A stretch of DNA of 64,000 bases, taken from Shigella phage Sf19. The translations under genes were made by a program, and so were the position numbers. The DNA is taken from sequence record MF327005; one strand, 5' to 3'. Shown here piece after piece: positions 165-64,000 of the stretch; the first letter of the stretch is position 1; the number at the start of each line of letters is the position of its first letter. The notes under the pieces are model-generated. The model made no database searches and was not told the origin of the DNA. It worked only from the letters and a program-made list of their open reading frames with translations.

Positions 165-646
165 TGGTTAAAAGGGTTATTCACCCCGCTAGAGCTAAAT
201 TAGTCGGGGCTATGAAGAACTTGCATACGGCTAATGCTCAAGTTGGGTATTTTCAGGAACAAGGTCAACATAGCTCTGGTTTTTCTTACTCTGCTTTAAT
301 GTACTTGCATGAAGTTATTGGTGTACCAGCAGCTTCAGGTAAAGTATATCGTAGGTTGTTTGAAATTACTATGATGTTACACAGACAGACCTTGTTAGAG
401 CAGACTAAGAAGAATCTCTATAAGCAATTAAACAGTCTTAATACTGACCCCTCAGATACTTTAGAAGCATTTGCAAAGAGTGCTCAGAAAGCAATTAAAA
501 GAGGTTTTGGTAATACGGCTATATTGCCTCCTAACGCTCCATCTACAGTTAAAAAGAAAGGCTTCAATGCCCCTCTTGTAGAAACTGGAGATTTACGAGA
601 TAACCTTGCTTATAAAATTTCTACTAAGAAAGGTATTAAAAAATGA
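164..646 (+). CDS. hypothetical virion protein (neck/tail module)
   Basis: 160-aa ORF, first of a tightly coupled co-directional structural gene string. Confidence 0.5.
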   Translation: MVKRVIHPARAKLVGAMKNLHTANAQVGYFQEQGQHSSGFSYSALMYLHEVIGVPAASGKVYRRLFEITMMLHRQTLLEQTKKNLYKQLNSLNTDPSDTLEAFAKSAQKAIKRGFGNTAILPPNAPSTVKKKGFNAPLVETGDLRDNLAYKISTKKGIKK

Positions 647-1044
647 GACTCTTAAATAGACACAGCTTTGTAGTTAAAAGGAAGGTATCTGAAGATGGTC
701 ATTACAATGAAGATGGTGATTGGGTAGCTTCACAGGATATTGTATCAATTAACTGCAAAGGTAATATTCAACCTTATATTAAGGGTTCTGTAAAGAATGG
801 TACACAGATTGTTTTACCTGAAGGTATCAGACTGACAGATACAAGAATCCTTTTCACTGTAGCTGAGTTAAGAACGTCTGATGATGTTGATTGGACTGAA
901 GCTGATATTGTCATGATTAAGGGACACGAATACGAAGTCTTTATGACAATGGATTGGTCTGAACAATTAGCTCACACATCCCATTATGAGTATATCATTA
1001 TTAGAAGGGATAAGATGAATGCAGTTAGAAACAGCAGAACTTGA
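643..1044 (+). CDS. hypothetical virion protein
   Basis: 133-aa ORF, ATGA overlap with upstream gene. Confidence 0.5.
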   Translation: MRLLNRHSFVVKRKVSEDGHYNEDGDWVASQDIVSINCKGNIQPYIKGSVKNGTQIVLPEGIRLTDTRILFTVAELRTSDDVDWTEADIVMIKGHEYEVFMTMDWSEQLAHTSHYEYIIIRRDKMNAVRNSRT

Positions 1045-6382: not shown

Positions 6383-9143
<2,761 letters not shown>

Positions 9144-15798: not shown

Positions 15799-15827
15799 TT
15801 GACTAACTGTCAAGATGGTGTTAATAT
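15799..15827 (+). promoter_or_regulatory. sigma70-like promoter TTGACT-17-TAATAT
   Basis: Hexamers at 15799-15804 and 15822-15827; 10-bp inverted repeat CAAGATGGTG/CACCATCTTG (15811-15820, 15845-15854) overlaps it. Confidence 0.5.
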
Positions 15828-15876: not shown

Positions 15877-16071
15877 ATGCCAACCATTCTAGCAATCCTC
15901 ATGAAAAACCTTGGGGCATTCTTTTGGAAGCTTCTTTTTTCTCTTCTCAGTGAATACATGATTGAAAAAGTGTTCTTTAAGCTTGCAAGATACCTTGCGA
16001 GCAAAACAGATACACCTATTGATGATGAATTTGTAGATACCTTGGAAAAGGCTTTTAAAGGTGAGAAATAA
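15877..16071 (+). CDS. small membrane protein (holin-like candidate)
   Basis: 64 aa with one hydrophobic segment (ILAILMKNLGAFFWKLLFSLL); own promoter; function inferred only. Confidence 0.4.
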   Translation: MPTILAILMKNLGAFFWKLLFSLLSEYMIEKVFFKLARYLASKTDTPIDDEFVDTLEKAFKGEK

Positions 16072-16445
16072 TGAAGTGGCTTGAAGATGCTTTTAAGAAT
16101 AATATTGGTGCAATCGTTGTAGGTATTTTCAGTGTAATTGGTATGTACACTACAATGCAGGTCTCTGATGGTAAACAGGAAGTGTCTATCACAAATAAGT
16201 TACAGCAGTTGGATGGTTACTCAAAAGGTAACTATTCAGCTATTCGTGACTTACAATCTGATATGAAGCTCCTACAATTAGGGATGGAGAACCAGAAAGT
16301 TCAGCTAGAGAATGTTAAGGGAGAAAACGCTAAGTTGACTAAGACCCTTGATAAGTTCTCTGACAGTGTTAACAACTTAGCACAATCTGTATCAGCTTTG
16401 CAAGCAATTACAGAACAAAATACCCAAAGCACTAAAAAGAAATAA
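16071..16445 (+). CDS. membrane-anchored coiled-coil protein
   Basis: 124 aa, N-terminal TM segment (IGAIVVGIFSVIGMY) then predicted coiled coil; TAATG coupling. Confidence 0.45.
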   Translation: MKWLEDAFKNNIGAIVVGIFSVIGMYTTMQVSDGKQEVSITNKLQQLDGYSKGNYSAIRDLQSDMKLLQLGMENQKVQLENVKGENAKLTKTLDKFSDSVNNLAQSVSALQAITEQNTQSTKKK

Positions 16446-16449
16446 TTCT

Positions 16450-16477
16450 AAGGCTCCTTTTTACGGGAGCCTTTTTT
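16450..16477 (+). terminator. rho-independent terminator at convergent junction
   Basis: AAGGCTCC-loop-GGAGCCTT followed by TTTTT; lies between plus block end and thyA stop. Confidence 0.6.
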
Positions 16478-24700: not shown

Positions 24701-27400
24701 TTAGTGAACTTCCAGCCAGCTTTTACCAACCTTACCAGCACCAGTTACAAGGGTATCTTTTTTAAGACCTAAGTTCTTAGAAGCTTGCCCGTAGTACCAG
24801 TCAGTTACTGCTTTGACTTCTGCTGTCATGCTCTCTGGACATTCCCAGCTTGTTTCATCGTGGTAAGCACAGAGTAGGCGAGCACCAATAGCTGGTTTAC
24901 GACCATTCAGTTTCATTAACCCTTCATCAATCATACGACGACAAGCAAGGTTGATTGCTTCATTCTGTACTTGTGCTTCTGAACCCATCAACAGATAGTT
25001 CAAAAGTTTATGTGGAGATTTACACCACAACCAAGCACCAGCAACCTTAACAAAACCACCTTTAGCGATAGCAGCAGTTTTACCAAACACCTCTTCCAGT
25101 GCTTTCTTAGTAGCTTTAAAGTCGGCTTCTAAGTTGTCTAACAGTTTCTTAATCTTCGGCAAACGCACAAAGTAAGTCTGTTTAGTTAATGCACCTTCCT
25201 GAGTGGTAGCTGCTTTAATGGTCTTAGCAAACTTTTCATCACCTGCACCGAACAACAGTGCATAGATACCATTCTTAGCTTTCTTACGACCCTTACTAAT
25301 TTCGTGAAGAAGATTTTCATCCTGAGTCATACGACAAGTCAAGATATCCTGCTCATCATTCAAACTAAAGTAGATACTGTTCAGTGTATGAGCATCAGTA
25401 CCTGAGTAAACTACATACAGGTCATTTTCATGGTCATAACGAAGATACTTGTCAACTTCAGGGTTCAAGTATTCATCAAAGTGTTTGCAATAGTAACGAC
25501 CATCTTCTTGACGAACAAACTCAATCTCTTCTTTACCTTCAGTTACAGCCTTTGTGAAATCCTTATCACCCATAAAGTTACAAAGAAGAACAAGCTGTGC
25601 AGAGTTCATATCTACAGAGACTACGTTTGTCCCTTCTTCACAAATCCAAACTGCCCTCATTGGTTCCCCATAAACGGCAGCACCAGAAGGTACGTTTACA
25701 ATACCATACTGCGTCATACGTCCAGTAGATGTACCAAACACCATTGCACCAGCACTCAAACGACCATCTGGACGAATCTGGTTCAACCAGCCCTTTTCAT
25801 CATCTTTTGAGTTCTCAATAGTTCTACGTCGGTGCATCAAAGTATAGTACTTCGCAATCTTCTGTCCAAGCTCACCTTCGATTGTATCATAAGAAGATTC
25901 TGTAAGCTTTGGTGAAGTCCTAATCAAGCAAGGCTCAAGCACATCTGTGTACTTCTTAACAGACCAGTTATGCTCGATGTAATAGACACCTTCATGCTCA
26001 ATATAGTTCAACCCACAACGTTCAACCATCTCATCCCACTTAGGATGTTTGCGAATCATCTTTTTGTTATCTTTGAATCTGCAAACCTTAATAGGACGAC
26101 CATCAGAATCTTTTTTATAGTTCCAATCATCAGGAATCCAGCCAACGGATTTTAAGTAATCCTTCACCACAGCTACCTGAGTCATTCGTGAAACTTCAAA
26201 CTCAATTGGTGTGAATGGTGCATCAATCAAACCAGTGTAGCGACTAGACTCTAACTCAAAGTGGTTAACAACGTGAACATTGTAGTACTTCACAGTTTTC
26301 ACAGTCTTAACTGGCTTCCAATCTTTACACTTCTTGCCAATCTTCTCATTCAGTTCATTACAAACTGCACGAGCATCTTTCATTGCTACAAAACCTTCAG
26401 GGTACTCTTCTTTTGTGACCGTGTTAGTTGGAGTGTAGCAGTTGCGTTTCTCAACATTAAAAATCTTTGTAGTTGGCTTACCATACGGCTTGATAGGGTA
26501 CTGCTTCAACTCGCCTTCACGCATCTGTTCACGATACTTTGTCTTAGGGTACTTGGTAATCCTTTTTAAACCGTCAACGTGACCAAATGTATCTACATAC
26601 TCATTCCAAGACTTGGCAAATTCTTCACCTGTGACTTTACCTTTTGTCTTAATAGTTGGTGGAAGGTGTGGTTCAACCTCAGCAGCCAACTCATTAGTTA
26701 ACTTGTCAAGCTCTTTAACGTGGAACTGCATAAGCTCTACATCAGCTTTCCAACCGTTGATAGCTTGCTGACTCATCCAGAAAGATGTTTCTTTAGCTCG
26801 CATGTAGGTTTCATAAGTGTCAACACCACACTTCTTAAGCTTGAGGTACTCATTATCAAGAGCACGTTTAGTTTTGGCGTTAATCTTAATATCTTCTACA
26901 ACACGAGTAAGAATCTCTGCATTCCAGACACCCCACTCTTCAATCTCTGGTTTACGGACACCTACACGAGCACCCCATGCAGCCAAACCATGAGCACCTT
27001 TGTAACCTTTTGGTGTAGGTCTATCCATCCACTGTACGCGAGATTGGATAAGTGAATCCTGAAAGAAGTCACCCCAAGGCTTACACTTAGGATTCTCAAA
27101 GTTCCACAGGTCAGGTGCAATGTGATTAAACACCCACCAGTCATAACCAAGACCATTATGGATACAAAGACGTTTAGCTTTCAGTGCAAACTCAACCCCT
27201 TCACGCAGACCACCTTTGATGTACTTCGTGTACTTGTGACCAAGGATAGGCTCATCAGTGAACACCCACACAGCAGGTTCGTCACTGTCATCTTTATAGT
27301 CTGCGAAAGCCATTACGTGTGCTTTTGTAAACTCAAGGAGCAACCCATCAGTTTCTGTATCACCAACCAAATGTAATTTTTCGAAATCTACATTGTCCAT
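24701..27400 (-). CDS. DNA polymerase, family A, with 3'-5' exonuclease domain
   Basis: Exo I motif DTETDG near N-terminus; palm motifs VVSVDMNSAQL (A-like), KNGIYALLFGAG (B-like), YHDETSWE (motif C HDE). Confidence 0.9.
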   Translation of the reverse strand: MDNVDFEKLHLVGDTETDGLLLEFTKAHVMAFADYKDDSDEPAVWVFTDEPILGHKYTKYIKGGLREGVEFALKAKRLCIHNGLGYDWWVFNHIAPDLWNFENPKCKPWGDFFQDSLIQSRVQWMDRPTPKGYKGAHGLAAWGARVGVRKPEIEEWGVWNAEILTRVVEDIKINAKTKRALDNEYLKLKKCGVDTYETYMRAKETSFWMSQQAINGWKADVELMQFHVKELDKLTNELAAEVEPHLPPTIKTKGKVTGEEFAKSWNEYVDTFGHVDGLKRITKYPKTKYREQMREGELKQYPIKPYGKPTTKIFNVEKRNCYTPTNTVTKEEYPEGFVAMKDARAVCNELNEKIGKKCKDWKPVKTVKTVKYYNVHVVNHFELESSRYTGLIDAPFTPIEFEVSRMTQVAVVKDYLKSVGWIPDDWNYKKDSDGRPIKVCRFKDNKKMIRKHPKWDEMVERCGLNYIEHEGVYYIEHNWSVKKYTDVLEPCLIRTSPKLTESSYDTIEGELGQKIAKYYTLMHRRRTIENSKDDEKGWLNQIRPDGRLSAGAMVFGTSTGRMTQYGIVNVPSGAAVYGEPMRAVWICEEGTNVVSVDMNSAQLVLLCNFMGDKDFTKAVTEGKEEIEFVRQEDGRYYCKHFDEYLNPEVDKYLRYDHENDLYVVYSGTDAHTLNSIYFSLNDEQDILTCRMTQDENLLHEISKGRKKAKNGIYALLFGAGDEKFAKTIKAATTQEGALTKQTYFVRLPKIKKLLDNLEADFKATKKALEEVFGKTAAIAKGGFVKVAGAWLWCKSPHKLLNYLLMGSEAQVQNEAINLACRRMIDEGLMKLNGRKPAIGARLLCAYHDETSWECPESMTAEVKAVTDWYYGQASKNLGLKKDTLVTGAGKVGKSWLEVH

Positions 27401-49101: not shown

Positions 49102-50607
49102 ATGCGCATGGTAAATGACCACGCAACGGTAATTAAAAGCTCAAGTACACTGGAAACCTCTCAGGCTCAGATTAAGATGACACCTGAAATGTTCAGTCTT
49201 CTAAGCTCAGGTGTTTACACATATAAAGAACGTGCTGTAATTCGTGAATTGTCATGTAACGCAGTAGATGCTCACATTGATTCTGGTAACGTTGATAAAC
49301 CTTTCTTGGTTCACTTACCAACTCGTTTCGAGCCATTCTTTGAAGTTCGTGACTTTGGTACAGGACTGACTCATGATAAAGTTATGAAACTTTACATGAC
49401 CTATGGAGAATCTACAAAGAACGATTCAAACGACTACATTGGTGCTATGGGTATCGGTTCAAAGTCCCCATTTGCAATTGCTCAGTCATTCACTGTATCA
49501 AGCTATGTTGATGGTGTAGTTAACAAATACTCAGTTTACCTTGAGAATGGTATCCCTCAAGTAACTAAGTTGACTACTAACCCAACTACAGAGCCAAATG
49601 GTTTAGCTGTTCGAGTAGCGGTATCCGATAACCGTATCAACAAGTTTCATGAAGAAGCGAGCAATGTATACTCGTACTTTAAAGTTAAGCCAGAGTGTAA
49701 TGTTGAGTACTATGACATTCTTGAAGCAATGACTTCCATTTCTCGTGAAGATGGTGTCTATGATGCAATGAAGTACAAAGAGAACTGGCGTTCAAATAGT
49801 AACAGTGTCCATTTCAATGTAATCATGGGTAATATTGCTTATCCTGTTGAAATGGGTGAGTTGCTTGGTTCAGAGTTTACAAGCATTCTGCCTCAGTTCT
49901 TCCGTAGTGCTGTAGACCTTGTTAACATCTACATGCCAATTGGTTCAGTGGCTATTGCTGCATCTCGTGAAGCATTGCAGATGAATGAGACCACTAAGAC
50001 CAAGATTGTTGAAGCTGTGAAGAAAATCACTAAGACAATCGTAGAAGATGTGGTAAAAGAGATTGCTAACAAGCCAACTCTGATTGATGCTGCTCAAGCC
50101 TATGATACCATGAGGAAGGAGGCTCGTGAAATCTTTATTCACGTCCAAGATTCTCTGGAATGGCAAGGCCAGAACTTGAAAAAACTTGAACAAAAACTGT
50201 TAGGTATCCGTCGTGGTCAGTTAACTGAAGCAGATGGTTCTCCGTCATTCTTGAAAGATGATGCAGGTAACTTGAGGCTTGACAAAGATGGTAATCCAGT
50301 TCCTAATATTGGTAATCTGTATGAACCTGTAGCATACTACAAGTACAGCAGTCTGGAGAACCGTATTCGAGCAACTTCAGCAACTTATTCACAAGATGCA
50401 GCAATGTTTAGTATCTTTGGTGCAATGAGTAAAGATAAGTTGAGCAACTATTTGTTCCTTATCAATGACCGTCGAAACAAGAACGGGTCTGAGAAGACAA
50501 CTGGTAAAAACCAGATTATCCGTGGAGCTTGCCGTGACCGTGAACAGGAAGACTCTAACTTCCGTCGCTACAACGGTATTGCTTTCTTGTTCAGCAGTCA
50601 GCAGTAA
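49102..50607 (+). CDS. GHKL-ATPase domain protein, rIIA-like
   Basis: Bergerat-fold motifs: N-box ELSCNAVDA, G1 RDFGTGL, G2 GAMGIGSKS; rIIA assignment from memory. Confidence 0.5.
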   Translation: MRMVNDHATVIKSSSTLETSQAQIKMTPEMFSLLSSGVYTYKERAVIRELSCNAVDAHIDSGNVDKPFLVHLPTRFEPFFEVRDFGTGLTHDKVMKLYMTYGESTKNDSNDYIGAMGIGSKSPFAIAQSFTVSSYVDGVVNKYSVYLENGIPQVTKLTTNPTTEPNGLAVRVAVSDNRINKFHEEASNVYSYFKVKPECNVEYYDILEAMTSISREDGVYDAMKYKENWRSNSNSVHFNVIMGNIAYPVEMGELLGSEFTSILPQFFRSAVDLVNIYMPIGSVAIAASREALQMNETTKTKIVEAVKKITKTIVEDVVKEIANKPTLIDAAQAYDTMRKEAREIFIHVQDSLEWQGQNLKKLEQKLLGIRRGQLTEADGSPSFLKDDAGNLRLDKDGNPVPNIGNLYEPVAYYKYSSLENRIRATSATYSQDAAMFSIFGAMSKDKLSNYLFLINDRRNKNGSEKTTGKNQIIRGACRDREQEDSNFRRYNGIAFLFSSQQ

Positions 50608-50631
50608 TTCGATGAGTTTGTAGATTTGCAT

Positions 50632-51474
50632 ATGCTTGACAAGAGTCTGTTAAGTGTGCATACAATGTCATCTAAAGAGCACCACTATGAGAAACGTACT
50701 ATTGTACGTGGTGTTGTAAAACTGTATAAAGCATTTATATGTCCAAATACTGACATGATTCGCTATACAGAGGTTAAAGAGAACTTTGATGAGATTGAAG
50801 AACCACAACTGTATATCAAAGCACAGAGTGATGAAGTGATTGGTGGAATCTTCTCATGTTCACCAGAACGTGCTGCAACGTTGATGACAGAGTTAACTGG
50901 ACAGTCAGTTTATGTCTTCCGTAAAGCCAACTGGAAAAAGATTCCTGAAGACTGGACAGAAGTCAATGAACAAGTGATGAAAGATTTTATTGATAATACT
51001 CATTGGATTGAGTATCACCGTTACTTGACTCACCAATATATGACTAATAATCATGATATCACTGATTGTAATGTGATTTCTCGAAACTTTATGTTTGCTG
51101 ATAAGCGTAAGTCCAGAGGCCACATTTACAGTAAAGACTTTAAGAAGACTATTTTCTTAGAGGGGAATGAAGAGGCTATAGAAGCAATGTTTGGACGCTT
51201 GGCATATACTGCTGCACCAGTTGCTTACAAAGATATTACCAGCACTCTTGATACCATTCGTAGGAATATGAGAGGTTCTTGTAAGCCAAGAAAGGTTCTG
51301 GATAATGCTAAGAAGCGTCTTGAAAGCAAGTTCAAAGATTACTTTGAGAAACGCCGTAAAGAAAACTTCTTGCTTTCTAATCTGGATTGGAATAAAGTAT
51401 CACCAGTCGAAGTTGGTAAGTTTTTAGGTTTTGACACTAAGAGCATTCCAGAAGATACTGTATGCTGGGATTAA
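50632..51474 (+). CDS. hypothetical protein (possible rIIB-like partner)
   Basis: 282-aa ORF directly downstream of rIIA-like gene; start uncertain (ATG 50632 or 50665). Confidence 0.35.
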   Translation: MLDKSLLSVHTMSSKEHHYEKRTIVRGVVKLYKAFICPNTDMIRYTEVKENFDEIEEPQLYIKAQSDEVIGGIFSCSPERAATLMTELTGQSVYVFRKANWKKIPEDWTEVNEQVMKDFIDNTHWIEYHRYLTHQYMTNNHDITDCNVISRNFMFADKRKSRGHIYSKDFKKTIFLEGNEEAIEAMFGRLAYTAAPVAYKDITSTLDTIRRNMRGSCKPRKVLDNAKKRLESKFKDYFEKRRKENFLLSNLDWNKVSPVEVGKFLGFDTKSIPEDTVCWD

Positions 51475-52684: not shown

Positions 52685-52702
52685 TAAGTAAATTCCTAAA
52701 GG

Positions 52703-52724
52703 GGCTGCTTCGGCAGCCTTTTTT
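52703..52724 (+). terminator. rho-independent terminator
   Basis: GGCTGC-TTCG-GCAGCC followed by TTTTTT. Confidence 0.65.
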
Positions 52725-52726
52725 AT

Positions 52727-52754
52727 TTGAAAAATGTGCAGGTTAGTGTATAAT
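52727..52754 (+). promoter_or_regulatory. sigma70-like promoter TTGAAA-16-TATAAT
   Basis: Perfect -10 TATAAT at 52749-52754 preceded by TG; spacer contains TGTGCAGG motif also found in 56902-57125 repeats. Confidence 0.5.
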
Positions 52755-52785
52755 TGTCTGCATGTTTAACAAAATAGGAGTGCAA

Positions 52786-53334
52786 ATGAAGAAATTTGTT
52801 TTAGGTTTGTGCTTATTCTTTACAGCACATTTAGCTACAGCATCTGACTGTCCAGAGCTTACAATCAGCCAGAAAGTTAATATGTTAAAAGCATATAACT
52901 ATGGCGAAGGGCAGATGGGAAAAGGTTGGGGAATCCCTTTAGCAGCTATAGCCTTACAAGAGTCACAATTAGGTGTCATGTTAGAAAATAAAAAGACTCA
53001 TGATTATGGTGTTTTCCAGAATCACTTGAAGACTGTTGTAAAGCGTAACAAGGTATCTCCAAAGGTTGCTAAGAAGAAGCTAGTAAGTGACTTCCATTAC
53101 TCAGCGAAAGAGGCTCATAAGGAGCTATTATTCTGGACTAAGGTTCATGGTAACCCAGATGGAAAGTACTCTATGAAGCGTGTCCTAGCTTCTTATAATG
53201 CTGGTTACAAATACAAGATTCCAAAGGCTAGACAATACTCTCAAGATGTGTACAATAACATGAAACTGCTGGCTCAATGTGAGTTTGCAACAAACATTAA
53301 AAAGGTAAAATATGAGCGAATCAAAACAATTTGA
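52786..53334 (+). CDS. secreted lytic transglycosylase (endolysin candidate)
   Basis: Signal peptide MKKFVLGLCLFFTAHLATAS; SLT motifs ES (QESQLG), GVFQ and SYNAG; start set at ATG 52786 after AGGAG. Confidence 0.65.
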   Translation: MKKFVLGLCLFFTAHLATASDCPELTISQKVNMLKAYNYGEGQMGKGWGIPLAAIALQESQLGVMLENKKTHDYGVFQNHLKTVVKRNKVSPKVAKKKLVSDFHYSAKEAHKELLFWTKVHGNPDGKYSMKRVLASYNAGYKYKIPKARQYSQDVYNNMKLLAQCEFATNIKKVKYERIKTI

Positions 53335-54007
53335 TATGGTTCTGTGTCATGCTTATGATATTAAGCCACTTGATTTAGATATCAGTTCTGCAAGTTGGTC
53401 AGATATTGCTAAAGCTGACTTTGCAGATACAGCAAGAGATGTTGTGTGTAGCTTTGAAGACTTCCACTCAACAAAGACACAGATTCCTTGTCAGGATTTG
53501 CTAACAGGTAAAACTGTATATGTTGGTCGTAACAGCCTTATCTTGGTTGCAAAGAACTTGGAAGAAAAACGTAAAATGGTCTTAGCAGACATTGATGGTG
53601 TTCTTACAAGCTTTGACAAGAAACTTAATGCAACTCTGTTAGATGATGGTACTTACTCACAGTATACTAACTTGGTAGACTCTCGCAGAGCTAAACCAAC
53701 ATATGTTTTTAACATTCTGTGTGGTATATCAAGAAATGCTGATATAGGATTCTTAACCGCTCGTGGTGAATCACAAAGAGTTGTCACACATCTTTTCCTG
53801 AATGAGAATGTAGACAGTGATTTCCTACTGTTTATGCGTGGATTTGGTGACAATGAGATTAGTGCAGAAAGTTTGAAAGTTCGTATGCTTCAGTCTTGCA
53901 TTCTACCTTACTATGATGTAGTATGCTTTATAGAAGATACAGTGAAGAACGTGGAGAAGGTTGAAAGAATCTTACCACACATCAAAACAATGCTTGTTAA
54001 AAACTGA
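53312..54007 (+). CDS. HAD-like hydrolase domain protein
   Basis: LADIDGVLT resembles HAD motif I (DxDGxL/T). Confidence 0.4.
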   Translation: MSESKQFDMVLCHAYDIKPLDLDISSASWSDIAKADFADTARDVVCSFEDFHSTKTQIPCQDLLTGKTVYVGRNSLILVAKNLEEKRKMVLADIDGVLTSFDKKLNATLLDDGTYSQYTNLVDSRRAKPTYVFNILCGISRNADIGFLTARGESQRVVTHLFLNENVDSDFLLFMRGFGDNEISAESLKVRMLQSCILPYYDVVCFIEDTVKNVEKVERILPHIKTMLVKN

Positions 54008-54018
54008 GAGAGTAAACC

Positions 54019-54483
54019 ATGCAAAACATTATTACAGTAGCTATCGATGCTTCCGGTAACAAATCACAGGTAGTTCGTGAGATTATCAAAAGTAATTTCG
54101 ATGGTAAAATCTTTCGTGCAGTAAACGTGAAAGCTGATGGTAACATTCGTGAGTATCGTGCAATGTTGAATGTCACAAAACACGTTAAGGGTGTTGGTTC
54201 AACTACTGCTCATAAAGAAAATCTGATGACTATCTATGATATGGGTATGGCTTCAGAGTTAGGTGCAAAAGGGATTGTACAATCCGGTGCTCCTTACCGT
54301 TCTTTCAATCTGGAAACTGCTCTTATGCTTTCCTTTACAAGTGGTTCTCAGACTACCACTTACCTCTTCACAGATACTGCAACGGTTTCTGCGATTAAGG
54401 ACAATACCATTAAGGCTGGCGTAGCTGCTGCTTCAAAAGCCTCAACAATGGCAGCAAATGTCCTTGCGAAAGTTCTTGGTTAA
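54019..54483 (+). CDS. hypothetical protein
   Basis: 154-aa ORF. Confidence 0.45.
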   Translation: MQNIITVAIDASGNKSQVVREIIKSNFDGKIFRAVNVKADGNIREYRAMLNVTKHVKGVGSTTAHKENLMTIYDMGMASELGAKGIVQSGAPYRSFNLETALMLSFTSGSQTTTYLFTDTATVSAIKDNTIKAGVAAASKASTMAANVLAKVLG

Positions 54484-54494
54484 AGTTATTATAG

Positions 54495-54516
54495 AGGCTC
54501 CTTCGGGAGCCTTTTT
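54495..54516 (+). terminator. rho-independent terminator
   Basis: AGGCTCC-TTCG-GGAGCCT followed by TTTTT. Confidence 0.65.
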
Positions 54517-54535
54517 CATTTCTAGGAGAAGTTAA

Positions 54536-54883
54536 ATGACGTTTAAAGAATTTTGTCAAGCAGCTTTTGTAATCATCTTCTTAACAGGTGTTGGTGCTTG
54601 GGGAGGTTACACTTACAAGACCAGCCAAGTTAATGAAAAGGAGCTAACTAACCAGAGACTGGTAAGTGTTGCTAAAGATGCTTATCAAGAAGGTTTATCA
54701 AATCTTAGCTCCAATTACAAAAATGATTTGAAAGATGTGCTTGCTAAAAACAAACACACCAAAGAGGTATTGAACTATGAAAAAACTAAGACAGTCTTTA
54801 TTAATGATTGTGCTACTGAGCCTTATGTCAGGGTGTTCAACGAACAAAGTGAGCAGTACCTTCAAAAACTCCCAAGTAAGTGA
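54536..54883 (+). CDS. i-spanin candidate (Rz-like)
   Basis: N-terminal TM (AAFVIIFLTGVGAWGGY) then charged helical periplasmic domain; overlaps lipoprotein ORF in another frame. Confidence 0.5.
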   Translation: MTFKEFCQAAFVIIFLTGVGAWGGYTYKTSQVNEKELTNQRLVSVAKDAYQEGLSNLSSNYKNDLKDVLAKNKHTKEVLNYEKTKTVFINDCATEPYVRVFNEQSEQYLQKLPSK

Positions 54884-55046
54884 GAGTGACAAGTACACTC
54901 AAGAAGAAGCACGATATGAGGTTAAAGGCACTAAAGGTGCAGACCTTGCAAGTGCTCTTGAGTTTTATCGTGATGGTTACTATGAATGTACTATTAAGGC
55001 AAACAATTTGATTGATATGATTTTGTTAGGGAATAAGCAGCAATGA
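54777..55046 (+). CDS. o-spanin candidate (Rz1-like lipoprotein)
   Basis: Signal peptide with lipobox-like LMSGC; start embedded in 3' end of i-spanin candidate. Confidence 0.5.
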   Translation: MKKLRQSLLMIVLLSLMSGCSTNKVSSTFKNSQVSESDKYTQEEARYEVKGTKGADLASALEFYRDGYYECTIKANNLIDMILLGNKQQ

Positions 55047-55883: not shown

Positions 55884-56076
55884 TTTCTGCACTAAGTGTT
55901 CTGTTGAGATGTTTGGAAAAGATACAGGAGACTTAAAAGGTCTCTTTACAAAAGCAGAGTTTGAAGCTGGTTCAGCAATGCCAGTAATCTGTGAAGGCTG
56001 TGGTGCTTTATGGGTAGACCATGAAGGTAACCGAGTTAAACCCTCTGAAGATAACGAACGTTGGGAGCATTACTAA
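55876..56076 (+). CDS. small zinc-ribbon protein
   Basis: 66 aa with CTKCS...CEGCG. Confidence 0.4.
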   Translation: MADFCTKCSVEMFGKDTGDLKGLFTKAEFEAGSAMPVICEGCGALWVDHEGNRVKPSEDNERWEHY

Positions 56077-56077
56077 T

Positions 56078-56872
56078 ATGGGTATCGTAAAAATTATTAA
56101 AGGTGATATCTTTAAAGACTTTGATGGTAAGAAGTTTGATATCATTGGTCACGGTTGTAACTGCATGAACTTGATGGGTTCAGGTATCGCAGCAACAATT
56201 GCTAAACGCTACCCAAAAGCTTATGAAACTGACGCTGAGGTTTATGCTACAGTAGGTGGTGAAAATCATAACCCTAAGCACCTAATGCTTGGTAACATCT
56301 CTGTAGCACGTTTTAAGCAGGGTCGGATTGCTAACCTTTATACTCAGGTTATCACTGGCAAAGATGCACGGTACAATGCTTTAGAAGCAGCTTTGCAGCG
56401 TCTGAATAATTACTGCAAAGTCAACCAACTTAAGAAAGTTGGGCTTCCTATGATTTGTGCAGGGATTGGTGGTCTTGATAGTATGGCTGTGCTGTCCATT
56501 ATTAATCAGACTATGAAAGATGTTGACGTATATATGTATGTCTATGAAGATAAGATGTACAGTCAGTTGACTAGTCCTGTTACTGGTTGGGAGAACTTCA
56601 GTGAGCCTCAATATTTTGATGGTGTTGCTGTGGTAGGCAAGGATAAAGTTACCCTCAAGGTGAAGCGTAATGGCAAGGTACACACCAGTTACCCTCCGGT
56701 TGAGAAGTACAATCGAAGTAACGCTCAAGTTACCCACCCGTTACAAGGTCACCACCACAGAGCGGTAACGTTTGGTGATGATGCAAGTGTGTATATCAAT
56801 GCGACTACAGAAGAGTTTGCAGAAGATTATATCACACATGAAAACGTAAACTATGTTGAAGCACGTAACTAA
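56078..56872 (+). CDS. macro-domain-like protein with C-terminal extension
   Basis: IIKGDIF...FDIIGHGCNCMNLMGSGIAATIAKRYP matches macro pattern (GDIT...NAAN...GGGVA.AI) loosely; start set at ATG 56078. Confidence 0.45.
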   Translation: MGIVKIIKGDIFKDFDGKKFDIIGHGCNCMNLMGSGIAATIAKRYPKAYETDAEVYATVGGENHNPKHLMLGNISVARFKQGRIANLYTQVITGKDARYNALEAALQRLNNYCKVNQLKKVGLPMICAGIGGLDSMAVLSIINQTMKDVDVYMYVYEDKMYSQLTSPVTGWENFSEPQYFDGVAVVGKDKVTLKVKRNGKVHTSYPPVEKYNRSNAQVTHPLQGHHHRAVTFGDDASVYINATTEEFAEDYITHENVNYVEARN

Positions 56873-58222: not shown

Positions 58223-58231
58223 ATAAAGTCC

Positions 58232-58260
58232 TTTACATGGGGTTTATAGTTAGATAAGAT
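58232..58260 (+). promoter_or_regulatory. early promoter class II (TTTACA-17-TAAGAT)
   Basis: Conserved cassette copy. Confidence 0.55.
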
Positions 58261-58313
58261 AAGCCCCAGATAAAGAGCTTTACCAAACAATAACCTAAAC
58301 TGGAGTATCAAAA

Positions 58314-58571
58314 ATGGCTACTATCAAAAACATCATTGTATCTGCAAAATCTCGTGATGACGCTCGCGCAACTGCTAAAAAATTAAATGGTAAAGTGGTT
58401 GACAACGGAAAAGAATCTGCTGTAAGATGGGGCGTGAAATGTGATAAGGAAATTACTTTAAAACGTAGTTCCTATGACCTTTTCAAAGGTGTAAAAGCAA
58501 TCGGTAGAACTAACGTCTACACGAAGAAAGGTTATAAAATGCACTTATCATTAACTGACAATTTAATCTGA
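58314..58571 (+). CDS. early small protein
   Basis: 85-aa ORF after class II cassette. Confidence 0.55.
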   Translation: MATIKNIIVSAKSRDDARATAKKLNGKVVDNGKESAVRWGVKCDKEITLKRSSYDLFKGVKAIGRTNVYTKKGYKMHLSLTDNLI

Positions 58572-60810: not shown

Positions 60811-61059
60811 ATGTTTAATATGTTGAATATCCCTGATACATGCCGACTCTTAACACAACTTGATAACCTTGGCAAGCCGTTTTTATATCATATGCCAGAT
60901 AACACTGCAAAAACTTACAGTTACATTGTAAACCGTTTTACGGCTTATGGTTCAAAGTATGGCTATAATGTCAAGACTCAAAAAGTGACTTTGTTCACAA
61001 GTATTGAAGAGTTACCAACTGTTGCCGTTAAACTAATCTTTACAAAGAAAACTAAATAA
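60811..61059 (+). CDS. early small protein
   Basis: 82-aa ORF after class I cassette. Confidence 0.55.
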   Translation: MFNMLNIPDTCRLLTQLDNLGKPFLYHMPDNTAKTYSYIVNRFTAYGSKYGYNVKTQKVTLFTSIEELPTVAVKLIFTKKTK

Positions 61060-61064
61060 AGTGC

Positions 61065-61093
61065 TTTACATGGGGTTTATAGTTAGATAAGAT
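61065..61093 (+). promoter_or_regulatory. early promoter class II (TTTACA-17-TAAGAT)
   Basis: Conserved cassette copy. Confidence 0.55.
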
Positions 61094-61143
61094 AAGCCCC
61101 AGATAAAGAGCTTTACCAACAATCCTAAACTGGAGAATCTAAA

Positions 61144-61701
61144 ATGAAATGCTTTCATGGTACTACACAAGAAAACTTTGTAAACCTTATCAATGGCGGT
61201 GATAAACCATCAGGAGCTTGGAATTGCTCTGATATGGATGGATGTTTTTACGTCTACCCTGTTAACAAGTTCTATGATGTAGAGAATCTGGATGACGAAC
61301 AAATCACAGATGAAGGTATTAGAAACGCGCTTGATAGCGCAAGCATTACAGCAGCCTATCAAATGAAGTCACAAAAGCTTGTTATCTTGGAACTGGATAT
61401 TCCAGAAGATGATTTACAAGATGACTGGAGCTGTGAGAACATGAGCGACGTAGCAAGCTTTACAGAATATTTCGATAAAGAATGGATTAAAAAGGTTTAC
61501 ACAACTGAATTTAATGCTATGTATGCACCTTTCTTTGTCCCTAACCTAAACAATAGAAATTTAGGATATGTACCAGACGAACTACGCAACATTGCAGAAA
61601 TAGTCCAACGTAGTGATGGGATGAGCAATGTATATTGTGATATCTTTGACACCATGCAATGCAACGTAACAGAAACGGTTATAAACGACTTAACAGCATA
61701 A
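61144..61701 (+). CDS. early protein
   Basis: 185-aa ORF after class II cassette. Confidence 0.55.
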   Translation: MKCFHGTTQENFVNLINGGDKPSGAWNCSDMDGCFYVYPVNKFYDVENLDDEQITDEGIRNALDSASITAAYQMKSQKLVILELDIPEDDLQDDWSCENMSDVASFTEYFDKEWIKKVYTTEFNAMYAPFFVPNLNNRNLGYVPDELRNIAEIVQRSDGMSNVYCDIFDTMQCNVTETVINDLTA

Positions 61702-62073: not shown

Positions 62074-62295
62074 ATGTTGCAAGTTCTTAACGTAAAAACC
62101 ATTGATTTTAAATTCTCAAATGTTCGTCGTACCTATTTACAGCCGTTTAGTAAACCTGTTAGGATTCCCAACGATGACGCTAAAAAGTTGATTGATGAAA
62201 TTCTAGCTAATGGCGGTTATCTGGCTAGTCATAAGCAGTATAATGATGAGGATGGAAGCCTGATAAATGAGTTTACATATTATTACTACAAATAA
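62074..62295 (+). CDS. early small protein
   Basis: Start set at ATG 62074 after the conserved leader; track ORF begins upstream within the promoter. Confidence 0.5.
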   Translation: MLQVLNVKTIDFKFSNVRRTYLQPFSKPVRIPNDDAKKLIDEILANGGYLASHKQYNDEDGSLINEFTYYYYK

Positions 62296-62307
62296 CTAAT
62301 AAAGTGC

Positions 62308-62336
62308 TTTACATGGGGTTTATAGTTAGCTAAGAT
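62308..62336 (+). promoter_or_regulatory. early promoter class II (TTTACA-17-TAAGAT)
   Basis: Conserved cassette copy. Confidence 0.55.
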
Positions 62337-62386
62337 AAGCCCCAGATAAAGAGCTTTACCAACAATCCTAAACTGGAGAATCTAGA

Positions 62387-62584
62387 ATGTTATCACTGAT
62401 GCAAAAACTTTCTACCTTGTGGTGTTTAAAAGGTGTAGAGTGTAACCTTAACATGGAAGGTTCAAAGATAGACCTAAAAATAGTATACAATGGAGAAATA
62501 CTATTCTCACAGAATAGCAGTCATCCACACTTCAAAGATAATGCAATTATGGCCGTGAATAATCTGATGGATAGAATTTATTAA
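62387..62584 (+). CDS. early small protein
   Basis: 65-aa ORF after class II cassette. Confidence 0.5.
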   Translation: MLSLMQKLSTLWCLKGVECNLNMEGSKIDLKIVYNGEILFSQNSSHPHFKDNAIMAVNNLMDRIY

Positions 62585-62589
62585 AGTGC

Positions 62590-62618
62590 TTTACATGGGG
62601 TTTAAAAGCTAGTATCTT
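62590..62618 (+). promoter_or_regulatory. early promoter class II (TTTACA-17-TATCTT)
   Basis: Conserved cassette copy. Confidence 0.55.
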
Positions 62619-62669
62619 AAGCCCCAGATAAAGAGCTTTACCAACAATCCTAAACTGGAGAATCTGAAA

Positions 62670-63011
62670 ATGGCCTATGTAACAATTATCACCGATAAAG
62701 AAAATTCGTCATGGTCTACCCAAGTTAACGACAAAATGAAACCTATGCAGTGTCTCAAGTACTTTGAGCAATGGAACAGGGGAGAAGATGTAAGCCCGTT
62801 TCAAGTGATGCAGATTGTACATGTTGACAATGAAGGGAATAAAACTACCCTTAACACTGAATACTATGCTACACGTTTCGAAACTCGCAAATCAGCTATG
62901 CAGGAGTTAAGAGAAAAGGGATATAGTCACATTGCCGCGCTCATTTGGTCTGATTTGCTTAAAAAACAGTCATTAACCTATGTTAAGCCAGAAAAAATCT
63001 TTATAAGCTAA
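62670..63011 (+). CDS. early protein
   Basis: 113-aa ORF after class II cassette. Confidence 0.55.
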   Translation: MAYVTIITDKENSSWSTQVNDKMKPMQCLKYFEQWNRGEDVSPFQVMQIVHVDNEGNKTTLNTEYYATRFETRKSAMQELREKGYSHIAALIWSDLLKKQSLTYVKPEKIFIS

Positions 63012-63412: not shown

Positions 63413-63940
63413 ATGAATAAGTTTAATGCTGTTAATGCAATCCGTAGCCGTGAAGTGATGAGCAAGCCTTGTAAAGATACTTGGGAATTTACCTTAAAGA
63501 GCAAAGTTTTTGCAGTTATCACAAAAGGGGAAGATAAGCAGTTTTATGTACACCGACCAAATGTAAAAGCGGTAACAGCCAACAACTTTATGGGGGCTAT
63601 TTCTCTTATTCTGAATGATTATATGGCTATAGTCGCAGAAATTCACGAAATGGCTATTAAGGCAACTAAAAACGAGTTAAACCGCTTTAAAATGGCTTAT
63701 GAGCGCTCTATTAAGTCCCATAATCTTTTTATTGCAATCCACTATACAGGCATGTATGCTATGGGAACGGGTAACCAACAATACCCACTCTATGAAGTGG
63801 AAAACATCTTTACAAGTGACTACCCAACAACTAATTTTAAAATTACGTTAGGGGAAGCATTAAATAGGGGAATTAGGCTTTACGAACAATCTTTAAAAAA
63901 CTTAGAAAATTCCCTTGACGAAATCATCACAAATCTATAA
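63413..63940 (+). CDS. early protein
   Basis: 175-aa ORF after class I cassette. Confidence 0.55.
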   Translation: MNKFNAVNAIRSREVMSKPCKDTWEFTLKSKVFAVITKGEDKQFYVHRPNVKAVTANNFMGAISLILNDYMAIVAEIHEMAIKATKNELNRFKMAYERSIKSHNLFIAIHYTGMYAMGTGNQQYPLYEVENIFTSDYPTTNFKITLGEALNRGIRLYEQSLKNLENSLDEIITNL

Positions 63941-63943: not shown

Positions 63944-64000
63944 ACTTATCAACGGGGAGGGAATGACCTTCCCCAACAATCCTAAACTGGAGACTAGAAA

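Follow-up and report, generated by a model that had tools for sequence, protein, structure and literature searches.

A Vs.1-family lytic transglycosylase-like gene and an overlapped spanin pair in a phage closely related to Shigella phage Sf17

The window analysed here (the whole stretch of 64 kb) is a slice of a genome of about 90 kb and starts near the equivalent of position 25,444 of Shigella phage Sf17 (Ounavirinae, Mooglevirus), to which it is 99.9% identical. The three open reading frames singled out in a preliminary description of this DNA are all present, one for a protein resembling SLT-type lytic transglycosylases (52786-53334) and two that overlap each other (54536-54883 and 54777-55046). 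At matching positions, the Sf17 records name a putative lysin, both spanins (i- and o-) and a putative holin. All the features described below lie on the plus strand. The region opens with an intrinsic terminator after rIIB (52700-52725; GGGGCTGC-TTCG-GCAGCC and then a T-run), read from the sequence and annotated at the equivalent position in Michonne. Before it, rIIA is cut short by a premature stop at 50605.

Directly behind the terminator, a consensus scan and the sequence itself predict a sigma-70-type promoter (52727-52754, TTGAAA-16-TATAAT, 11/12) that would serve a unit beginning with the SLT-like gene (182 aa). This gene has been labeled 'putative lysin' in Sf17 (gp112) and 'lysozyme-like domain' in Michonne (gp142). 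We take the ATG at 52786 as its correct start, since an AGGAG precedes it by 6 nt and, with the -10 box at 52749-52754, transcription would start near the alternative ATG at 52762. The unit continues with a gene annotated as polynucleotide kinase/phosphatase-like (HAD) (53312-54007; phrog_3970, 1e-127), which is not a lysis gene, and with a conserved hypothetical gene (54019-54483; phrog_2267, gp114 in Sf17). It ends at a strong intrinsic terminator with a 9-bp stem and a T-run (54493-54514), located between gp114 and the i-spanin, where Michonne likewise has an annotated terminator. Hence, as predicted from the sequence, the SLT-like gene belongs to a unit bracketed by its own promoter and by terminators. 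Going by these signals, it does not form one unit with the spanin genes, given the separate promoter and the two unrelated genes and strong terminator that intervene.

Sequence searches of the PDB with the SLT-like protein, either as a single sequence or as an 11-member profile, returned only spurious matches (e.g., the PRP4 kinase and a designed repeat protein), so a fold comparison was needed, and this identified a goose-lysozyme-like SLT fold. The motifs E59-S60, G75-x-F77-Q78 and S136-Y-N-x-G140 show no variation across 11 homologues and Vs.1 of phage RB32, and Glu59-Ser60 are the predicted catalytic residues. Against the Pfam SLT family (PF01464) the window protein reaches 18.1-18.4 bits, under the gathering threshold of 21.3. 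Of 11 relatives, 10 match this family at E<=0.01 (the best at 2.6e-6) and RB32 Vs.1 is above the threshold with 25.1 bits. None of the six proteins searched gave a useful match in NCBIfam.

The N terminus carries the cleavable-type signal peptide that had been proposed for this enzyme. It comprises residues 1-19, with a hydrophobic core of 14 residues (FVLGLCLFFTAHLA) followed by A-x-A, a pattern kept in the homologues, and the predicted cleavage site (ATA|SD) was assigned by the -3/-1 rule, a heuristic. Distant homologues have a lipobox in place of the signal peptide and retain the position adjacent to rII. Judged from these export signals, a periplasmic location is a conserved feature of the family. 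Two cysteines, Cys22 and Cys165, are also conserved. We considered whether the N terminus of the window protein could be that of a lipoprotein (LGLC) and rejected this, as the lipobox rule is not satisfied. We also discarded a role in the virion, given that Gp3 of Felix O1 was absent from the structural proteins identified and that an export signal is present. Neither is the N terminus a SAR domain, because 14 hydrophobic residues are too short and the A-x-A site is conserved. The protein does resemble the SAR or signal-peptide endolysins (P1 Lyz, phage 21 R, N4 and Lys44 of the Oenococcus phage fOg44) in that an export signal at the N terminus precedes a muralytic domain. Unlike them, its gene is outside a lysis cassette, has no adjacent pinholin and belongs to a genome type with a separate soluble endolysin.

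A way to place the protein is provided by its relatives in other phages. Matches were found in 1,928 phage records, including vs.1 of T4, T2 and RB32, and the match in KVP40 is annotated as 'SLT domain protein similar to T4 vs.1'. By tblastn, the similarity to T4, T2 and RB32 is 31% identity over 85% of the query (E 5e-7 to 1e-12), and the alignment with RB32 Vs.1 runs from end to end, with the signal peptide and the motifs common to both. T4 Vs.1 and the window protein are alike in length (181 and 182 aa, respectively), in having an N-terminal signal peptide, and in early-region location and motifs (E-S, Y-G-x-F-Q-N, S-Y-N-x-G), with about 31-33% identity end to end. There are also differences. 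The Ounavirinae version has the conserved Cys22/Cys165 pair, absent from T4 Vs.1, and lacks an insertion of ~12 residues found in the latter, while its gene comes directly after rIIB instead of after regB. T4 vs.1 is a conserved ORF beside regB with orthologues across the Straboviridae, such as KVP40.0279.1 ('transglycosylase SLT domain protein'). Vs.1 was already given as the homologue of ORF3 in the Felix O1 paper. On the strength of these alignments, we regard the SLT-like protein as the orthologue of T4 Vs.1. The specialized small lytic transglycosylases of the EtgA/IagB/IpgF/VirB1 type and MltE of E. coli are similar in fold and motifs only, and the protein described here differs in being phage-encoded and in coming without an associated secretion apparatus.

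In Mushroom and several other records the same ORF appears as a T4 RegB-like endoribonuclease. These database labels are all that speaks for such an identity, to which we give practically no credence. There is no match to the Pfam family REGB_T4 (PF10715) at E<=0.1, compared with 230 bits for a genuine RegB; the fold is SLT, a signal peptide is present, and in T4-type genomes the counterpart is the gene adjoining regB. The family and fold tests have thus refuted it, and the adjacency to regB explains how the label spread. The proper name for the exported protein is Vs.1-family lytic transglycosylase, and both 'lysin' and 'RegB-like endoribonuclease' are wrong labels.

The SLT-like protein had been described as the only recognizable muralytic enzyme. 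This is true inside the window, where tblastn found no copy of a GH24 lysin, but not at the scale of the genome, since Sf17 carries the GH24 lysin gp17 (7861-8325 in its record), with 135 bits to Pfam Phage_lysozyme and 6e-57 to the endolysin family phrog_7. The window begins about 17 kb downstream of the gene for this soluble endolysin, so that the apparent absence is a window-edge artifact. The gene is known from near-identical relatives, the corresponding part of the source genome being outside the window. A 64-kb slice of a 90-kb genome had therefore made what is probably a normal holin-endolysin-spanin phage seem endolysin-less.

The candidate holin does lie far from the spanins, as the preliminary description had it. 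This ORF (16071-16445, 124 aa; gp55, 'putative holin', in Sf17) has a single N-terminal TMD around residues 12-28 followed, by hydropathy, by a hydrophilic and predicted periplasmic helical tail of ~95 aa. The label 'holin' that it bears in relatives is itself a prediction, and the ORF matches only phrog_4038, a family that carries no functional annotation, and no significant Pfam or NCBIfam family, so that topology is what makes it a putative class-III holin. Just upstream is a small hydrophobic/amphipathic protein by hydropathy (15877-16071, 64 aa; phrog_402, likewise a family with no functional annotation), and the pair is flanked by a terminator (16450-16473) and by the promoter-like site that had been noticed before (15799-15827). 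The Michonne genome paper is explicit about a soluble GH24 lysozyme and a putative class-III holin in the relatives, and these two speak against the proposal of a signal-peptide- or SAR-driven lysis without the canonical holin and endolysin. The dispersal of the lysis genes, which was correctly noted, is a known pattern in Felix O1 and T4; holin and lysin were reported in 2010 to be non-adjacent in Felix O1, 'as with coliphage T4'. We thus consider it quite probable that the stretch is an ordinary early-region gene block of a FelixO1-like myophage closely related to Sf17, with nothing unusual in its lysis system. GenBank records and papers published between 2006 and 2018 had already covered the spanins, the putative holin, the ORF called 'lysozyme-like' and the scattered arrangement of the genes.

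Could the Sec-exported SLT-like protein nonetheless be the effective endolysin, or a co-endolysin, waiting in the periplasm to be activated late, in a signal-peptide-driven lysis that needs no canonical holin? The intact catalytic motifs and the export-type signal would fit, GenBank curators chose the label 'putative lysin', and 'some role in cell lysis' was proposed early on (Nolan 2006). Expression in Felix O1 can be read in the same direction, for by RT-PCR the counterpart ORF3 peaks at 25 min together with ORF6 and the lysin ORF35, although this coarse timing groups SLT, i-spanin and lysin together and does not separate an accessory function from a lytic one. On the other hand, the relatives have a strong soluble GH24 endolysin and a putative holin, and the gene sits between rIIB and the polynucleotide kinase gene, in an early-type unit behind a sigma-70 promoter, without the holin or pinholin that would be expected beside an endolysin. 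Outside the Ounavirinae its homologues are found among DNA-metabolism genes and never linked to lysis genes. T4, where the orthologue Vs.1 is present, has its own endolysin (gene e), and T4 e mutants do not lyse in spite of vs.1. We therefore see an endolysin function as highly unlikely.

The two overlapping ORFs had been recognized as a spanin pair, and this holds. The first (54536-54883, 115 aa) matches the Rz-like spanins of phrog_1152 (6.8e-38), is annotated as i-spanin and has an N-terminal TMD around residues 6-24 (best 19-aa Kyte-Doolittle window 1.62) that is conserved in four genera by cross-genus alignment. All that bears on the coiled coil proposed for this protein is a single-sequence AF2 model of low confidence (pLDDT 52.7), which is all-helical with a helix at 3-21. 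The second (54777-55046, 89 aa), annotated as o-spanin in Michonne and Mushroom, begins 241 nt into the first in the +1 frame, has a GAGG ribosome-binding site upstream and overlaps it by 107 nt (54777-54883), a layout also seen in Hafnia, Erwinia and Salmonella relatives. Its lipobox (LMSG|C20) conforms to the PROSITE-type rule in 4/4 orthologues, with Cys20 invariant and Ser-Thr at +2/+3 (no Asp at +2). Cys92 of the i-spanin and Cys71 of the o-spanin are invariant across the four genera, periplasmic and available for intermolecular disulfides. All these features are held at 25-80% identity (76-80% for the Mushroom pair), and the o-spanin ORF is kept in 301 phage records. By sequence, the pair is an overlapped two-component spanin of the JH2 family, which was described with Felix01, Moogle, Mushroom, wV8 and FO1a as members (Kongari 2018) and which it resembles in overlapped architecture, TMD, lipobox and periplasmic cysteines with no notable difference; it is already annotated in GenBank, while no experimental study of the family turned up in the literature searched.

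Compared in architecture with Rz/Rz1 of lambda and PseT.3/PseT.2 of T4, the pair shares the type-II inner-membrane protein and outer-membrane lipoprotein, the adjacent genes and the periplasmic Cys. The genes are overlapped here, embedded in lambda and separated in T4. The mature o-spanin has 70 aa and no proline, whereas Rz1 is short and proline-rich. As in T4, the spanins are near a polynucleotide kinase gene and far from holin and endolysin; the T4 spanins are expressed early. The T4-type late promoter (TATAAATA) does not occur in the whole window, against 3.3 occurrences expected by chance. A weak promoter-like site (54464-54492) would, speculatively, start transcription inside the stem of the terminator at 54493-54514.

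The most likely course of lysis in this phage is the canonical one in three steps, its genes being scattered as in T4. First, the putative class-III holin (16071-16445) would permeabilize the inner membrane, which would then release the soluble GH24 lysozyme (gp17 in Sf17) encoded outside the window. Finally, once the murein had been degraded, the pre-made i-/o-spanin pair (54536-55046), until then restrained by the intact murein, would fuse the inner and outer membranes. The SLT-like gene would be transcribed before the late phase from its own sigma-70-type promoter, and its product exported by Sec, with cleavage of the signal peptide, and probably locked by a Cys22-Cys165 disulfide. The mature protein would carry out a limited and accessory cleavage of periplasmic murein and would not act as an endolysin. 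Our best guess is that it serves in local remodeling or loosening of the sacculus, aiding later steps at the envelope. Literature searches found nothing on the function of Vs.1 or of the Ounavirinae protein past a domain note from 2006, and no experiment on any member of the family (a cryo-EM paper on Bas63 mentions a transglycosylase only in an unrelated context, and looking for Felixounavirus transcriptomes yielded nothing relevant), so that we infer both enzymatic activity and role. The family is widespread and, in T4, actually expressed, which makes it a reasonable if modest target for knockout.

Two other roles deserve mention. The protein could act in phage-phage or phage-host conflict and not in lysis, for example in superinfection exclusion or by altering the sacculus or the muropeptide pool so as to block incoming phages or host defense, a logic like that of Imm and Sp, which T4 likewise makes early and exports. 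Its predicted early expression and export would agree with this, as would its conservation across large virulent myophages with rII and the proximity of its gene to the exclusion-related rIIA/rIIB, even in a distant relative. Yet this linkage is absent in T4, KVP40 and the Ackermannviridae, and the invariant catalytic Glu argues for a real cleavage of glycan, which is no obvious mechanism of exclusion; we consider such a role unlikely. A broader and also rather doubtful idea starts from the conservation of Vs.1-type proteins across T4-like, FelixO1-like and Ackermannviridae phages, with some 1,900 genomes in all. These periplasmic transglycosylases, which may be made before late gene expression, might be a fourth and so far unrecognized component with which large virulent myophages act on the envelope during infection, opening the murein mesh for the pre-made spanins to bridge the periplasm or tuning lysis timing or lysis inhibition with the neighboring rII genes. 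If so, the placement of the SLT-like gene beside rIIB and near the spanins in the Ounavirinae would be functional and not accidental.

A minor observation concerns the annotation of Sf17, whose GenBank record begins the o-spanin at an internal GTG (54849 of the window) and leaves out the lipobox. The correct start is the ATG at 54777, and the start codon in that record should be moved to take the lipobox in.

Over the 4-kb stretch around the spanin and transglycosylase locus, identity to Shigella phage Sf17 (Ounavirinae, Mooglevirus) reaches 99.9%, and the stretch has counterparts in 275 related records, FelixO1-like phages of Escherichia, Salmonella, Shigella, Citrobacter and Erwinia. Matching of ORFs to Sf17 genes, among them gp37 (window 643-1044) and gp137 (window 63413-63940), places window position 1 at about 25,444 of Sf17 and position 64,000 at about 89,770, so that some 25 kb of the 90-kb genome fall outside the window. 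The offset between the two is not constant, running from 25,443 (left end) through 26,123 (52 kb) to 25,772 (right end), which implies indels of several hundred bp; Sf17 is ~680 bp longer before 49 kb and the window ~350 bp longer after 57.6 kb. The window is distinct from Sf17 itself.

This boundary matters for the lysis genes. The preliminary description had taken an exported transglycosylase for the only recognisable muralytic enzyme, a claim that fails because Sf17 encodes a GH24 'lysin', gp17 (154 aa, Sf17 7861-8325), in the part of the genome outside the window. This protein matches Pfam Phage_lysozyme with 135 bits and an endolysin PHROG at 6e-57, and its N terminus has no hydrophobic segment; no counterpart was found in the window. 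The apparent oddity of the transglycosylase as sole lysin is a window-boundary effect. The product of 16071-16445 (+, 124 aa) corresponds to Sf17 gp55, 'putative holin', and is labeled holin in many relatives. The assignment is putative and is based on topology alone (one transmembrane domain and a hydrophilic tail), and the PHROG matched carries no assigned function. As proposed, this gene and the small hydrophobic ORF directly upstream (15877-16071) may have a promoter of their own, with a promoter-like site at 15799-15827 and a bidirectional terminator at 16450-16473. The dispersal of the lysis genes is also right and was already documented in the Felix O1 paper, in which holin and lysin are not adjacent, like in T4. 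The Michonne genome paper likewise gives a soluble GH24 lysozyme and a putative class-III holin. The further suggestion of holin-independent lysis driven by a signal peptide or SAR sequence is not supported, given the GH24 lysin of Sf17, the putative holin and an export signal too short for SAR.

The spanin pair reading is right, and already known. Both overlapping ORFs exist, the i-spanin at 54536-54883 (+) and the o-spanin at 54777-55046 (+), and family match, transmembrane domain, lipobox and layout all bear the pair out. The i-spanin has a single N-terminal hydrophobic segment and falls into PHROG 1152 ('Rz-like spanin', 6.8e-38); its AF2 model (single-sequence, low confidence) is helical throughout, and the coiled coil named in the preliminary description is a candidate feature only. 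The o-spanin, in the +1 frame, shares 107 nt with the i-spanin, is preceded by a GAGG ribosome-binding site and satisfies the PROSITE-type lipoprotein rule, Cys20 being followed by Ser-Thr, an outer-membrane sorting pattern. It differs from lambda Rz1 in that its mature form has 70 residues and not one proline. At the equivalent loci of Salmonella phage Mushroom, Hafnia phage SarahDanielle and Erwinia phage vEam_W_28 (25-80% identity across the loci compared), the transmembrane domain and periplasmic Cys92 of the i-spanin, the lipobox Cys, Ser-Thr and second Cys (Cys71) of the o-spanin and the overlapped layout are kept in all, and the o-spanin frame is intact in 301 phage records. In their spanin census, Kongari et al. 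(2018) place Felix01, Moogle, Mushroom, wV8 and FO1a in the 'JH2' i-spanin and o-spanin families. The Sf17 record names gp115 'i-spanin' and gp116 'o-spanin', and the same two names stand in the Center for Phage Technology annotation of phage Michonne, whose o-spanin coordinates are those of the preliminary description. The Sf17 GenBank o-spanin begins at an internal GTG (window 54849), with loss of signal peptide and lipobox; the start that gives a lipoprotein is ATG 54777, used for Michonne and Mushroom.

The transglycosylase ORF, 52786-53334 (+, 182 aa), also exists as described, with a family-level SLT match, the hallmark motifs and an export-type N terminus. Its true start is ATG 52786, because AGGAG lies 6 nt upstream and a predicted, near-consensus sigma-70-type promoter (TTGAAA-16-TATAAT, 52727-52754) would begin the transcript near the alternative ATG 52762. 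Sf17 gp112 and the Michonne homologue are called 'putative lysin, lysozyme-like domain'. By itself the protein falls just under the Pfam SLT threshold (18.1 versus 21.3 bits), and PDB sequence searches with it gave only noise. Evidence at the level of the family is solid: Pfam SLT is matched by 10 of 11 homologues (best E-value 2.6e-6), and all three motifs that characterise family-1 lytic transglycosylases (E59-S60, G75-x-F-Q78 and S136-Y-N-x-G140) are invariant. The N terminus (MKK, a hydrophobic core of 14 residues, then A-T-A|S-D) repeats its -3/-1 pattern in homologues and is built like a cleavable Sec signal (residues 1-19), too short for a SAR anchor. Cys22 and Cys165 flank the SLT domain and are invariant among Ounavirinae-type proteins, compatible with a periplasmic disulfide. 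Two distant homologues (P0015 and L010:6001-6507, the latter just downstream of rIIA-rIIB on a metagenomic 84-kb phage contig) carry a true lipobox, LSAC, in place of the signal peptide; periplasmic location is therefore the property that is conserved.

A translated search found homologues in 1,928 phage records. In T4, T2 and RB32 the homologue is vs.1, adjoining regB, and RB32 Vs.1, above the Pfam SLT threshold, aligns end to end with our protein and shares the signal peptide and all motifs. Others occur in KVP40 ('transglycosylase SLT domain protein, similar to T4 orf vs.1'), in T4-like phages of Klebsiella, Acinetobacter and Aeromonas, and in Ackermannviridae. In the Felix O1 genome paper, the entry for ORF3 (182 aa) already gives similarity to 'Vs.1' from a T4-like Aeromonas phage. 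A marginal match of vs.1 to SLT had been noted by Nolan et al. (2006), who proposed 'some role in cell lysis'. Literature searches found no experimental paper on the family. Homologues in Mushroom (L008:1290-1838), Dickeya phage Kamild (L011:3417-4031), Escherichia phage N2 and Klebsiella phage EI are labeled 'RegB-like endoribonuclease'. This label is wrong: REGB_T4 is not matched (true RegB scores 230 bits), the fold is SLT and an export signal is present. It probably came over from regB, the neighbour of vs.1 in T4.

The gene order is rIIB, a terminator, the promoter at 52727-52754, the SLT gene, a PNK-like gene (53312-54007), a conserved hypothetical gene (gp114 homologue, 54019-54483), a terminator at 54493-54514 and the i-spanin ribosome-binding site. 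Since that second terminator is strong and ends the preceding unit, the SLT gene and the spanins are neighbours in separate units. Outside this group of phages, Vs.1 homologues occur among genes of nucleotide metabolism or recombination, not near lysis genes. A weak promoter-like site (TTGCGA-17-TATTAT, 54464-54492) abuts its stem; speculatively, a transcript from this site would begin inside the 5' arm, could escape termination and express the spanins. The T4 late-promoter motif TATAAATA has no match in the whole window (3.3 expected), in agreement with the Felix O1 paper, according to which no T4-type late transcription factors are encoded. Semi-quantitative RT-PCR in Felix O1 placed ORF3 (SLT), ORF6 (i-spanin) and ORF35 (lysin) all at 25 min, and T4 vs.1 and both spanin genes (pseT.3, pseT.2) all fall into the early-RNA class, with proteins detected. 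The surroundings are T4-like in two respects: within 53312-55046 a gene of the polynucleotide kinase type is close to the spanins, as pseT is to pseT.3/pseT.2, and a macro-domain (A1pp) gene (56021-56872) lies near the Vs.1 homologue, as tk.4 does near vs.1. The resemblance suggests that these early-region modules of rII-carrying myophages share an ancestry. Early spanin production would be compatible with what is established for lambda and T4, whose spanins are restrained by intact murein until the endolysin acts.

Lysis most likely combines a holin, probably encoded at 16071-16445, with a soluble GH24 endolysin and JH2-type spanins. T4 e mutants reportedly fail to lyse despite carrying vs.1, which argues that the Vs.1 family cannot replace an endolysin. 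Starting in the pre-late phase, Sec would export the Vs.1-type enzyme, which would perform limited murein cleavage; the favoured role of this cleavage would be a local loosening of the sacculus that aids later envelope events. The main alternative is that the enzyme acts in conflict between phages or between phage and host. The sequence features described do exist, and the annotations are for the most part correct; everything structural in the finding is already public.

Two minor observations concern rIIA and the right arm. Within rIIA (49102-51474), position 50605 is T where Sf17 has C, and this single substitution turns codon 502 from CAA to TAA, leaving 501 residues of a 790-aa product. 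The stop is absent from all 31 related phage records (best match 99.5% over 201 nt), and S23N in the o-spanin is the one further non-silent difference from Sf17 over the 8.6 kb compared. The stop could stem from an r-type mutation, natural or acquired in the laboratory, or from a sequencing error. Between small right-arm genes, intergenic repeats of ~95 bp, 88-97% alike, are found at ~57584, 58223-58316, 61050-61150, 62275-62389 and 62581-62672, and may be repeated promoter/terminator modules.
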